From Escherichia phage phiKP26, in sequence record KC579452: a stretch of DNA of 47,285 bases; one strand, 5' to 3'. The stretch's first letter is position 1. Each line of letters starts with the position of its first letter. The notes below the pieces were generated by a model. That model saw only the letters and a program-made list of their open reading frames with translations, had not been told where the DNA came from and did no database searches. Below, in pieces: positions 14,041 through 18,400 of this stretch. Made by a program: the position numbers and the translations under genes.

Positions 14041-14691
14041 ATGGCCCATCTCAGCAATGGCACACAAATTTTTTTGCAAGGCTCTAAATCTGAATCGGTA
14101 GCCGTAACGGCTATCACTAACGCAGCTCAGCCAGTTATGACGGTAGCTGACGCTTCAACTTTCGCAGCTGGTGACTTCATTGTTGTTGAGTCATCTTCAT
14201 GGTCTAAACTTTCAGAGAAACAGTTGCGAGTAGTTACATCAACGGATACAACAATTACCGTTGAAGGCATTGACACTACTGACCCGCTTCAGTTCCCAGC
14301 TGGCGGAACGGCATCGATCTACAAGGTTCTTACCTGGTATGAAATGCCTTGTGTTCAAGACGTTTCAACTGATGGCGGAGAGCAGCAGTTCGTTACTTAT
14401 CAGTGCCTGGCTGATGACCGTGAGCAGCAGATTCCAACTTATAAGTCAGCGGTAAACACGACCTATACGTTTGCTCACGAGTTCACCAACCCGATCTACC
14501 CGGTACTCCGTAACTACGACGAGTCTGGCGCGCTGATTGCGATTCGTGCATACGTTCCTAAAGCTGGCGAAGTTCGACTTTGGACTGGCACTATCGCGTT
14601 TAACGAAACTCCAAACGTTTCCGTTAACGAGATCGAAACTGTATCCGTAGCAATTACGGTACGTGGACGCTATAGCTTCCTGGCTGCATAA
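14041..14691 (+). CDS. major tail protein
   Basis: 216 aa with a strong RBS (aaggag); position before chaperones and tape measure; terminator downstream. Confidence 0.65.
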   Translation: MAHLSNGTQIFLQGSKSESVAVTAITNAAQPVMTVADASTFAAGDFIVVESSSWSKLSEKQLRVVTSTDTTITVEGIDTTDPLQFPAGGTASIYKVLTWYEMPCVQDVSTDGGEQQFVTYQCLADDREQQIPTYKSAVNTTYTFAHEFTNPIYPVLRNYDESGALIAIRAYVPKAGEVRLWTGTIAFNETPNVSVNEIETVSVAITVRGRYSFLAA

Positions 14692-14697
14692 CAATCA

Positions 14698-14721
14698 AGC
14701 CCCTTCACAGGGGCTTTTTTN
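14698..14721 (+). terminator. rho-independent terminator
   Basis: agcccct-tcac-aggggct hairpin followed by a T6 run. Confidence 0.7.
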
Positions 14722-14764
14722 ATGTTATAATTTCAACTCAAACAAACACGAGAGGATTATTTAA

Positions 14765-15079
14765 ATGGCGAAATTCAAATTAAAATTAGGCGCGCTCCCT
14801 GATTTCAAGCTTCCGGTTAAGTTCCAGATGATCAACGGCGAGGAAGCTGAGGTTATCTTCAATGCCAAGCACCGTAAGGCTAAGGAGATTCAGGAAGTAT
14901 TCCAGACCGAAGGCCTTAAGGATTTTGACTTTGTTAAAGAGATTTGCAGCGGCTGGAACCTTGAAGAAGAATTTAACGACGAGAACATCGAAGAGCTGGT
15001 ATCTCTGTTCCCCGCATCCGTTCTGGCACTGACTAATGCTTACATGCAAGCTCTGGCGGGCCAGCGCGCAAAGGTCTAA
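14765..15079 (+). CDS. tail assembly chaperone (gpG-like)
   Basis: 104-aa acidic ORF directly upstream of the tape measure gene. Confidence 0.6.
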   Translation: MAKFKLKLGALPDFKLPVKFQMINGEEAEVIFNAKHRKAKEIQEVFQTEGLKDFDFVKEICSGWNLEEEFNDENIEELVSLFPASVLALTNAYMQALAGQRAKV

Positions 15080-15141
15080 AGCGCGCAGTATATCTACAGT
15101 ATCAAAGAGAGCCAACGGACGCCGAACTTGAAGCCATTGGA

Positions 15142-15396
15142 ATGCGGCGTTCCGATTACGAAGATGAGGAGCCAGAGGAGTTACACTTCGATGATGACAT
15201 GATGCTGGCATGGACTGTTTATCAGGCAGCTTCAACTCAATGGCGTGTAGGTATGAACGGCGCTACCGGAATAGATTATTCAGTACTCCCTTTCCTCTTT
15301 GATGTGTATAATGTCAAGGACAAAGAGATGACTTTAAATGACTTGCGAATACTGGAGTGCAAAGCACTTGAGATGATGCAAGTAAGGCAAAANTAA
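15142..15396 (+). CDS. tail assembly chaperone extension (gpT-like, probably made as a -1 frameshift G-T fusion)
   Basis: The -1 frame is open from ~15067 through 15396, overlapping the end of the G-like ORF; no canonical slippery heptamer seen. Confidence 0.4.
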   Translation: MRRSDYEDEEPEELHFDDDMMLAWTVYQAASTQWRVGMNGATGIDYSVLPFLFDVYNVKDKEMTLNDLRILECKALEMMQVRQX

Positions 15397-15430
15397 CCTC
15401 CCTTTGTGGAGGTTTTTTNATGGAGGTTAC

Positions 15431-18400
15431 ATGGCAGAATTTGCAGGTATCACACTTGGCGTTGACGTTCGCCAGGTTGACCAGGGCACAAAGTCCCTGC
15501 AAGANTTTAAACGTGCCAATGAACAGGCGGCAGCTGGAGTTAGCGAGTTCGTTAATGCTGAGCTGGTTGCGAAGAATCAGGCTCGCGACACTGCAAGGTA
15601 TCTTTCTGAGCAGAGAAGTGCTTTTCAGTCGCTTCAGTCTGCAATTGATCCAACAGCTTCAAAATTGCGAAAACTTCAAGATGCAGCAAGTTCTCTTGAT
15701 AAGGCCTTCTCCGCAGGGGTTGTTCCAGAGGCTGAGTTTTACAGGCTTGGTGAAGCATTAGAAACGCAAACAAATAGGTTAATAAGGTCTAGGTCAGCAT
15801 TAACTGAGGAGGGTAGGGCGGCTATAGAAGCTGCAAAAAATAAAGAGTCCGCTGAGAGGCAAGCGCAATCATTTATTAGGTCGCTTCAAGCGCAGGCTGA
15901 TGCAGCGACATTAAGTAGGGATGAGTTCTTAAAGTTAAGGGCGGCACAGCTTGGAGTTAGCGATCAGGCAGCACCAATAATAGATAGAATAACACAGGCA
16001 TCAAGTAACAATACTAACGCTATAGCAAATCAAAGTAGGGCGTTTCAGGCGGCTGGGATATCGGCAGGTCAGTACAATCAGGCCTTAAGGTTCCTTCCTG
16101 TACAGATCAATGATATCACCAGCTCGATTGCTAACGGTATGCCTTTATTTATGGTGCTTACCCAGCAAATACCGCAGATTACAGATTCATTTGGTGGATT
16201 TTCAAATACATTATCAGCTGCGCAAGGTGCAGTTATAGATTATGTATCATCAATAGGAGAGCTGAGAAGTTCATTTGCTGATGTTAAGACTCTTGGTGAT
16301 GAGGCTATCTTAAGGTTTGGTCGTGCTGCAACTATATTTGGTGGCGCGATAGTTGCTTCATTAGCTGTTCTTGGTAAAGCCGCTTACGACTCATTTATTG
16401 AGGTTAGGCAACTTAATAACGCAATAATTGAAACTGGAAGGTCGTCGACTTTATCAGTTGCCGCTATCAAGGATTACGCTGATCAGCTAAATGAAACATC
16501 AAGGGCAACAAAAGGTTCTATTGGTGACATTTACCAGTCGCTAGTATCAAACGGAAGGCTTACTGTTAGTCAGATTAACTTAATCGCTAAGTCTGTTGCT
16601 AACCTTTCAGCTGTTAGTTCAAGGTCTGCGGAATCAATAATATCTGACTTTGATAAGATAGCAAAAGATCCAGTTAAGGGGCTGATAGAGTTAGATAAGC
16701 AATTTAACTTNCTTAGCGAAGGGCAGTTGACCCTAGTTAACAACCTAAANGAAACGGAAGGGCAAACAGCAGCAGTAACAGCAGCTTTAGAAATATTTGC
16801 AGCTAGAAATGAGTCAGTTACAAAGCAGATTGAAGGCTCGCTTACACCTCTTGAATTGGCTTGGGGCGATTTCCGTAAGTTCGTTTCAGACACATGGGAT
16901 GCTATAGGTGACAGGACTATAGGAGCTCTAAACCTATTTACTGACGTTATAGCTGCGACTATTGAGCGAATAAGACTGATAATTGGCACTGGCGACAAGC
17001 TAATAAATGATTTCGTAATACGCGGAATAGAGGCGTTACAAAAGATACCAGGAGCATCTGGCGTTGGTAATGGAATAGCCGAACAACTAAGGAAGGATAA
17101 TGACGCAATAGAAAAGGAAAACATAAGGCTAGCTAAATCTATCGCTGATAGGGATGCAAGGGTTCGCAGGGGCGAGACTGGTTACTTGAGTGTTGGAGAG
17201 GGTTCAGAAAGTCAAACTGGAACTTCTGATAGAGATTCAGAATCAAGAAGAAAGGCTTTGGCCGATGAGATTAAAGCAATTGAGGAGAGAAGTAAAAAGA
17301 CAAAATCTGGAGCAAAAGAAGAGAGGGATTTGACTATAAGTTATGAGTCTGGCGTTCTAGCTCTTCAGGCTCAGCTTAAGGTTCTTCAGGAGCACCGCCA
17401 GATTAGTGATGTTATCAGTAACGAACGCAAGCAGCTTTTTGCGGAGGAAGCTAAGTTTGCAATCCTTAATGAAAGGCTTGCAGACGGAACCATCACAAAG
17501 CAACAGCGATCATTACTGTTGCAGCAGGATAAAATCTTAGGACTTGCTCGCGAGAAGGCTGAGATTGGCGACCAGATTGTGCTGCAAGAAAGGGCCAATA
17601 AACTTCTTGATGACAACATCAAGAAGACTCGGCAGATTAACGCTGAAGCGGCATCAATTAGTGTTGGAGCAGGATTATCTCAGCGCGAAGCGGAAAGGCG
17701 GCGTGAGTTGGCGGCGCTAGAAGCCCAGCAAATTTCTAAAGGTGGCTCCGTAGATGACACTGACTTCCAGGCTTTACTTCAGGCTCGTCAGAATTTCTAC
17801 AATCAGGAAGATGCATTACGTGGTAACTGGCTGGCTGGCGTTAAATCTGCGTTTGCTGAGACGGCTGATGAATTGGCAAACTTTAATCAGATTGGTTCCG
17901 AGCTAGCCATGAGTGCCTTTAACGGATTGACTGACCAGATAACAAACCTGGTAACTACTGGAGAAGCTAGCTTCCGTGAGTTTACCGCATCGATTCTGAA
18001 GCAGATTGCACGCATTGCAACGCAGCTACTTTTAATTAAGGCGATTGAATCAACCATCTCCAGTTTTGGCGGTAGTGGTGGTGCAATTGGCTCTATTGGT
18101 AGCGCATTTGGTTTCGCTTCTGGCGGTTATACTGGAAACGGTGGTAAGTACGAGCCAGCTGGCACGGTGCATAAAGGTGAATTCGTCTTTACGAAGGAGG
18201 CAACCTCAAGGATTGGCGTTGATAACCTTTATAAGTTAATGCGCGGATACGCAAATGGTGGAGTGGTTGGTGCTGGTCCTGGCTATGCGACTGGCGGGCT
18301 TGTTGGTGGAAGTAACGTTAATGTTGGTGGAGTGAATGTTACCGTTCAGACAGGTCTTGGCGGTGGTGGCGGTAATGACGCTAAACAGTTAGAATCTGGT

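Follow-up and report, generated by a model that had tools for sequence, protein, structure and literature searches.

How is the second of two overlapping tail assembly frames translated in a T1-like coliphage when that frame carries no initiation signals of its own? The question is raised by a stretch of 47,285 nucleotides (nt) from Escherichia phage phiKP26 (sequence record KC579452), which we call the window and whose numbering is used throughout. There, a G-like tail assembly chaperone open reading frame (ORF), here G, is overlapped in the -1 frame by a second frame, here T, which has no start codon ahead of 15142. We consider it likely that the locus is a G/GT-type chaperone module of a T1-like siphovirus, in which the fusion protein GT is made by a slip of tRNA-Lys on the tetramer A_AAG, with attenuation by a terminator downstream. 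The features on which this reading turns are the following.

14765-15079, + strand: G-like tail assembly chaperone ORF; the standard-decoding product has 104 amino acids (11.8 kDa).
15037-15079, + strand: overlap of 43 nt in which the G and T frames are both open, and in which any -1 shift must fall.
15070-15073, + strand: proposed slip site A_AAG, with the Lys-103 codon AAG at 15071-15073 in the G frame.
15073-15396, + strand: T-frame part of the predicted GT, 107 codons plus stop.
15080-15141, + strand: linker of 62 nt, devoid of ATG, GTG and TTG in the T frame yet kept as T-frame coding sequence by purifying selection.
15142-15396, + strand: T part annotated as a separate 84-amino-acid protein, read here as the C-terminal part of GT.

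The G stop is the TAA at 15077-15079. The T frame begins after a TAA at 15034-15036, crosses the G stop and ends at the TAA at 15394-15396. A first-pass annotation of this DNA had proposed that the -1 frame is open from about 15067 across the G stop to 15396; the crossing and the end stand, whereas the start lies further upstream, at 15037. Many + strand ORFs of the window precede a -1-frame gene, so that an open -1 frame by itself does not discriminate and is no evidence of frameshifting. It is homology and conservation that lift the case for this frame above chance. G matches Phage_TAC_4 (PF08748, E=6e-37, 127 bits against a gathering threshold of 21.1) as well as phrog_569, and the T frame matches DUF1799 (PF08809, E=3e-13, 50.3 bits against a cut-off of 26). 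On phrog_17368, a profile of fused proteins with 213 positions, G aligns to positions 1-107 and the T frame to 100-211, and the pair is flanked upstream by the major tail gene and downstream by the tape measure gene. The lambda G/GT-like arrangement suggested earlier is borne out by these two families, by their order in phrog_17368 and by gene position, together with the heptamers and annotated joins of relatives described below.

To ask how the T frame is entered, we compared the locus with 80 T1-like loci from IMG/VR, T1 itself included, and with 16 distant homologues. With the whole open T frame as query, tblastn alignments begin at residue 1-2 in relatives of 45-58% identity, well upstream of the Met at 15142. 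Across the linker (20 codons, 56 distinct sequences), entropy at T-frame positions 1, 2 and 3 was 12.5, 10.4 and 27.7, and the ratio of synonymous to nonsynonymous codon differences was 11462:9394 when read in the T frame but 845:19369 and 1658:17985 in the two remaining frames. The same constraint is visible within the window's own clade of 13 heptamer-less genomes, where 10 of the 11 substitutions in 15080-15141 fall at T-frame third positions (binomial P=1.3e-4) and all four variable sites of the overlap are G-frame third positions; along the clade alignment, constraint follows the G frame as far as the G stop and the T frame beyond it. At 15142, ATG is found in just 15 of the 80 loci; the other 65 have a codon for Leu or Phe, T1 among them with Leu. 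The window's ATG has no Shine-Dalgarno sequence, its best anti-Shine-Dalgarno pairing being -2.4 kcal/mol at spacing 0, and it lies in the loop of a 9-pair hairpin (CGGACGCCG...CGGCG-TTCCG, -15.7 kcal/mol, arms 15116-15124/15145-15154) whose 3' arm follows immediately. Since the linker is T-frame coding sequence without a start, and ATG 15142 is unconserved and lacks a Shine-Dalgarno sequence, translation must enter the T frame from G. On this comparative evidence, the sequence from about 15073 onward is read in the T frame, and the shift is placed inside the 43-nt overlap, close to where G ends. We rejected reinitiation downstream of the G stop, as the T frame has no ATG, GTG or TTG before 15142. 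As a separate observation, 15231-15349, in the C-terminal half of the T domain, holds one variable site in about 118 nt among the 13 genomes, against one per about 5 nt in G; this invariance may reflect a recombination boundary or strong constraint.

Where within the overlap could the shift occur? When the G frame was scanned formally for X_XXY_YYZ heptamers, none turned up, either in the overlap or elsewhere in G, which confirms the earlier remark that no canonical heptamer is evident near the overlap. Two Z_ZZN tetramers are present in the overlap, G_GGC (15058-15061) and A_AAG (15070-15073), of which our slip-site appraisal retained A_AAG as the sole shift-prone one. In the window's clade G ends GCA AAG GTC TAA, and A_AAG sits where the first half of the family heptamer A_AAA_AAC stands. 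Re-pairing from AAG to AAA is cognate for the single tRNA-Lys of E. coli, and A_AAG was by far the best among 16 tetramers in that host (Sharma et al. 2014, PMC4066793). The AAAG tetramer gave 0.178% frameshifting unstimulated and 5.64% when combined with the IS3 pseudoknot (Sharma et al. 2014 supplement, PMC4066793), and the heptamer AAAAAAC gave 0.163% without a stimulator, 0.189% with the IS911 stimulators and 0.739% with the IS3 pseudoknot (Sharma et al. 2014, PMC4066793). Because these published values are comparable, an exchange of A_AAA_AAC for A_AAG need not reduce GT in an E. coli host. A CTA or TTA Leu codon overlapping the stop is kept in all slip-site variants, which places the shift before 15076. 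Transcriptional slippage was rejected, the longest A-run available being three A's.

The slippery-site search in homologous chaperone genes that the first-pass annotation had advised returned a heptamer at the homologous position in 49 of the 80 T1-like loci and in all 16 distant ones. In those 49, T1 included, G ends [G/A][T/C]A AAA AAC T[A/G]A, that is, with A_AAA_AAC right against the stop; 26 loci, all of them Webervirus, end GCA AAA GTT (or GCC) TAA, four end GCA AAG GTC TAA as the window does, and one is an assembly with indels. The distant homologues, several of them in phage contigs of about 100 kb, carry G_GGA_AAC directly against the stop (16/16), and in one of them the -1 frame opens 13 nt before the end of the stop. 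Because A_AAA_AAC or G_GGA_AAC stands there in so many loci, we take a heptamer abutting the stop to be ancestral, and the comparison points to a low-efficiency heptamer (A_AAA_AAC or G_GGA_AAC) against the G stop as the original signal of this chaperone family. Within the subfamily Rogunavirinae, A_AAG_GTC occurs in 13 genomes, the window included, while Sd1, Phagiculus and the uncultured locus L037 retain the heptamer; the A_AAG state of the window is therefore derived. By the same alignment, the window's clade appears to have swapped the heptamer for A_AAG_GTC with the position of the Lys codon unchanged, and Webervirus (L082-L108) to have lost the A-site half of the heptamer separately, in a second independent loss. 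The A_AAA left to Webervirus is a much weaker tetramer in E. coli, at 0.26% with a pseudoknot (Sharma et al. 2014, PMC4066793). One locus, L065 (1505-1515), looked like a naturally fused gene; it has five A's against six in the slip heptamer, together with further indels in T, and was rejected as most likely a homopolymer assembly error. Scanning for further members with the A_AAG sequence pattern gave one unrelated GC-rich bacterial contig (L112) in metagenomes and just the four loci already known in viral sequences. A protein homologue search with the GT fusion, aimed at deposited fusion proteins, returned a single 123-amino-acid protein and was uninformative.

We also looked for elements that might stimulate the slip, one of which lies upstream of the slip site.

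15055-15059, + strand: Shine-Dalgarno-like GGCGG of the GGNGG class; the second base of the slip motif follows 11 nt downstream.

By the definition of Sharma et al. 2014 (PMC4066793), such stimulators belong to the GGNGG class with a spacing of 6-17 nt. GGCGG fits both class and spacing and is possibly a weak slip stimulator; it is not conserved, with BECP10 having GGCTGG and many relatives lacking it. Downstream, the 67 nt that follow the slip site fold worse than all 200 shuffles (z = +2.5). Rfam gave no match over threshold. A search for a stimulatory hairpin or pseudoknot downstream of the slip site found none in the window; T1 and TLS-type phages do have one, so the method is able to detect them. 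There, a 30-nt hairpin of -14.5 kcal/mol follows A_AAA_AAC after a 7-nt spacer (GGCGGTTT...AAACCGCC; 1523-1552 in L109, which is T1, with the same type in L052-L058 and related loci), and forms a frameshift stimulator of the textbook kind. A 70-nt hairpin of -32.8 kcal/mol occurs in the L040 group, and no such downstream hairpin was found in Rogunavirinae. Around the slip site itself, a GCGCGC/GCGCGC stem (15064-15069 with 15081-15086, -11.4 kcal/mol) closes an 11-nt loop that contains both the slip site and the stop. We rejected this stem as a selected element: its arms are common codons (CGC GCA in the G frame, AAG CGC GCA in the T frame), it is missing in Webervirus, and the invariant run around it (23 nt, 15065-15086 region) is merely the third longest in the clade alignment, after runs of 76 and 42 nt elsewhere.

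In the mechanism we propose, most ribosomes would read 14765-15079 and release the 104-amino-acid chaperone G. A minor share, probably well below a few per cent, would slip back one base with tRNA-Lys (mnm5s2UUU) on AAG 15071-15073, re-pair on AAA 15070-15072, resume decoding at GGT 15073-15075 and read GGT CTA AAG CGC ... to the TAA at 15394-15396. The product would be a GT of 210 amino acids whose C-terminal DUF1799 would have no alternative translation route. The predicted protein (24.3 kDa) consists of G residues 1-103 followed by GLKRAVYLQYQ...VRQK, with the junction stretch ...MQALAGQRAKGLKRAVY. Its A_AAG junction, ...AGQRAK-GLKRAVYL..., differs from the canonical ...AKN-LKRAVYL... by one residue at equal total length. 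If the lambda model carries over, the tape measure protein would be coated by G and by the G portion of GT, whose T portion would recruit the major tail protein. Virion mass spectrometry of AHP24, AHS24, AHP42 and AKS96 identified seven structural proteins, with ORF 16 and 17 not among them, which fits non-structural chaperones without being decisive.

Downstream of the T stop and upstream of G lie elements that bear on how much of each product is made.

14041-14691, + strand: major tail protein gene (tail tube protein), PF08813.
14697-14721, + strand: terminator-like hairpin plus T-run after the major tail gene, 8 pairs, -13 kcal/mol.
14704-14731, + strand: near-consensus sigma-70 promoter TTCACA-16-TATAAT with TG, 11/12 matches, overlapping the 14697-14721 terminator.
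15395-15419, + strand: intrinsic-terminator-like hairpin AACCTCC-CTTTGT-GGAGGTT plus T-run, 7 pairs at 15395-15414 and a 6-nt loop.
15431 (ATG) to 18484, + strand: tape measure gene, encoding a lambda-type protein of 1017 amino acids; PF06791, PF09718 and phrog_24 (E=8.6e-244).

A hairpin with a T-run just ahead of the tape measure ATG had been noticed at the first pass, and it is indeed there: the hairpin takes in the last two bases of the T stop, the T-run reaches 15418/15419, and 12 nt separate its end from the ATG at 15431. The terminator form has a centroid energy of -9.6 kcal/mol. In all 22 distinct variants drawn from the 80 loci, a GC-rich hairpin and T-run start at the T stop or no more than a few bases from it, with stems that vary by clade (CCTCC, GCGCC, CCCGC, GCCGCC, GAGCGCC), and in the alignment fold 4 of the 7 pairs show compensatory double changes. 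AKS96 and AHP42 carry the element in their annotation as a rho-independent terminator (TransTermHP predictions), and Sushi as a terminator. It is thus a predicted intrinsic terminator conserved across the family, and the earlier suggestion that it attenuates tape measure expression fits this conservation. The 14697-14721 hairpin folds better than its shuffles (z = -3.8; 0/200 shuffles fold as well), and both it and the promoter are annotated in AKS96 and AHP42, the promoter also in Rogue1. The chaperone module, which may be served by a promoter of its own as well as by read-through, lies between two predicted intrinsic terminators, of which 14697-14721 is the stronger. The 15395-15419 terminator would most likely pass only part of the transcripts to the tape measure gene, which has its own strong Shine-Dalgarno sequence (GGAGG 15422-15426, duplex -10 kcal/mol). 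The most economical reading is a step-down attenuation that yields many tail tube subunits, fewer chaperones and fewest tape measure proteins.

Several points weigh against a GT made by a slip on A_AAG. One is the lack of a canonical heptamer in the window. The sequence itself also shows that the P-site tRNA-Ala on GCA is unable to re-pair with CGC, so that a tandem slip is excluded and a single tRNA would have to slip. Tetramer values without a stimulator barely exceed background, at 0.147% against 0.112% (Sharma et al. 2014, PMC4066793), and GT efficiency could therefore be very low. A downstream stimulatory structure, sought 4-10 nt after the motif by the criteria of Sharma et al. 2014, had 0 candidates. 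The GT fusion protein is so far unobserved in the window's clade, and the join is annotated in none of the ten GenBank records examined from it (0/10); those records give the T part as a separate 84-amino-acid 'hypothetical protein' or 'chaperone', and the 210-amino-acid GT is missing. The data leave the exact position of the shift within 15037-15079 unfixed, and with an ATG present at 15142, some free T protein may be made.

These points lend themselves to other readings of the shift. We think it improbable that the clade makes no fusion and translates the T domain alone from ATG 15142 as a separate protein. The missing heptamer and downstream hairpin and the two separate ORFs of the GenBank records would suit such a start, as would the presence of the ATG in the window's clade and two neighbouring clades (15/80 loci); yet the other clades with this ATG also retain the heptamer, which suggests that the ATG is simply a Met residue. 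An independent start for 15142-15396, the outcome that the first-pass annotation had set against a fusion, is further disfavoured by a ribosome-binding energy of -2.4 kcal/mol at spacing 0 against -5.8 to -10 for the G, tape measure and major tail genes, by the hairpin whose loop holds the ATG, by the Leu or Phe codon of most loci and by the startless coding linker with its third-position substitutions. There is likewise only a slim chance, in our estimate, that the fusion arises elsewhere in the overlap, through a -1 slip at G_GGC or a tRNA-Lys hop from AAG 15071-15073 to AAG 15079-15081. Both sites lie within the open overlap, but G_GGC is at background in E. coli, at 0.137% and 0.047% (Sharma et al. 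2014, PMC4066793), and in relatives the synonymous positions of its GCN GGN codons change freely. The hop would land on an AAG in the T frame, within the invariant 15065-15086, and its product would read ...RAK-RAVYL; that invariant run is unexceptional beside the longer ones in the clade alignment, however, and the Leu codon kept across the stop in every slip-site variant suggests that it is translated. To our knowledge, hops require a stop or hungry codon directly after the take-off codon, which here is followed by GTC. We also hold it doubtful that slipping on a bare tetramer, free of any downstream structure, arose independently in the window's Rogunavirus group and in Webervirus, possibly assisted by context. 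On that account A_AAG or A_AAA would be followed by GTY TAA and one tRNA-Lys would slip; if it were true, the slip in the window's clade might be aided by GGCGG and/or the GCGCGC stem around the slip site, the latter a stimulator of a geometry not known to have been described.

A further alternative concerns the hairpin at 15395-15414 rather than the shift. Its 5' arm AACCUCC could alternate between two GGAGGUU partners, the second being the tape measure Shine-Dalgarno sequence at 15422-15428, so that ribosomes terminating at the T stop would melt the structure and thereby tie translation of the tape measure gene to that of GT. The repeated TGGAGGTT and the start of the hairpin within the T stop codon agree with this, and the minimum free energy fold of 15385-15435 pairs 15394-15401 with 15422-15429 (-11.6 against -9.6 kcal/mol for the terminator form), although that fold is no better than shuffles (z = -0.71). 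The CCTCC/GGAGG stem is confined to the window's subfamily. Clades with GCGCC/GGCGC, CCCGC/GCGGG and GCCGCC/GGCGG stems cannot pair with the Shine-Dalgarno sequence, yet keep a hairpin and T-run there; what is conserved is a GC stem and a U-run, that is, a terminator. Moreover, only those few ribosomes that had shifted frame would reach the T stop. As the terminator persists in other clades with stems unable to pair with the Shine-Dalgarno sequence, translational coupling, which the first-pass annotation had also raised, is a minor possibility, and we judge a chiefly translational role for the hairpin unlikely.

The direct repeat TGGAGGTT occupies 15407-15414 and 15421-15428. Its first copy is a strong Shine-Dalgarno sequence (-10 kcal/mol, spacing 5 to 7 nt) for an ATG at 15420, which opens an ORF of 113 amino acids (15420-15761) out of frame with the tape measure gene; this Shine-Dalgarno sequence is buried in the terminator stem. 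The ATG is missing in L037 and other clades, and the ORF is probably spurious. For comparison, the Shine-Dalgarno sequence of G is GAGG, at -5.8 kcal/mol.

Over 14700-15500 the window matches Escherichia phages phiJLA23, AKS96 and C119 at 99.6% identity, and JK06, Rogue1 and other Rogunavirus members at 97-99%; its sequence places it in Rogunavirus (Drexlerviridae), as a T1-like coliphage and siphovirus. There are 149 N characters spread over the window, some of them immediately 3' of homopolymer T-runs (14721, 15419), and they resemble masked or low-confidence base calls. In near-identical genomes, the N at 15393 is A and that at 15419 is T.

How does this module compare with known systems? 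As in lambda, overlapping ORFs lie between the major tail and tape measure genes, the second in the -1 frame and reached by a slip; in both, tRNA-Lys slips on AAG, a low ratio of fusion to chaperone is expected, and neither product is expected in virions. Lambda differs in using the efficient heptamer G_GGA_AAG, at about 1:30, whereas the window has the tetramer A_AAG, at which the P-site tRNA cannot re-pair. The lambda heptamer lies several codons before the G stop; the A_AAG of the window, unlike it, lies two codons before. The programmed -1 frameshift of lambda gpG/gpGT was reportedly worked out by Levin, Hendrix and Casjens in 1993 and by Xu, Hendrix and Duda in 2004, 2013 and 2014. The proteins of the window (Phage_TAC_4, DUF1799) belong to Pfam families other than lambda's, and are likened here to lambda G/T by arrangement. 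How lambda makes G and GT, and how widely this mechanism is conserved, is textbook matter (Atkins et al. 2016, PMC5009743). Closer at hand, the Drexlerviridae Sushi, LL5, Stevie, Skenny and T1 have homologous proteins (45-75% identity) and share with the window the gene order, the -1 overlap, the position of the junction and the terminator behind the T stop. Most T1-like phages place A_AAA_AAC against the stop, to which T1 and TLS-type phages add a hairpin, whereas the window's clade has A_AAG_GTC and no hairpin, and Webervirus (Sushi) has independently A_AAA_GTT. Insertion sequence (IS) elements use the same motifs and the same tRNA-Lys re-pairing rule, with A_AAG in the IS3 family and A_AAA_AAC in IS1 (PMC4066793), the latter without a known stimulator (PMC4066793). 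The base after A_AAG is G both in the window and in the IS3 test cassette (ZZZN then GCCGC) (PMC4066793). IS3 differs in adding a strong downstream pseudoknot, none of which was found in the window, and the IS products are transposases whereas those of the window are chaperones.

Some of these relatives are already annotated accordingly. In Klebsiella phage Sushi and Escherichia phage LL5 the two ORFs are annotated as a coding sequence joined by ribosomal slippage, Sushi having been joined by CPT annotators despite the weak A_AAA of Webervirus, and the frameshift is stated in the genome papers of Citrobacter phage Stevie and Klebsiella phage Skenny. The paper on AHP24, AHS24, AHP42 and AKS96 mentions neither frameshift nor chaperones, and a full-text literature search for Rogunavirus together with frameshift gave no matches.

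The locus thus belongs to an ordinary and well-understood class of system, with a small variation in its slip site, to which our analysis makes modest additions: the ancestral heptamer-plus-stop, its replacement by A_AAG in the clade and the family-wide conservation of the terminator. Its main value lies in annotation, as the ATG annotated as the start of T in the clade is probably just an internal Met. If the slip occurs through a tetramer here, heptamer-only searches miss real recoding sites. The locus would be a natural case of a phage trading the heptamer A_AAA_AAC for a tetramer, A_AAG, that is at least as slippery in E. coli assays, and the exchange fits the idea that a small, tuned amount of GT suffices. 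Finally, the conserved terminator suggests that attenuation sets the dose of tape measure protein relative to the chaperones, and that it does so generally in T1-like phages.

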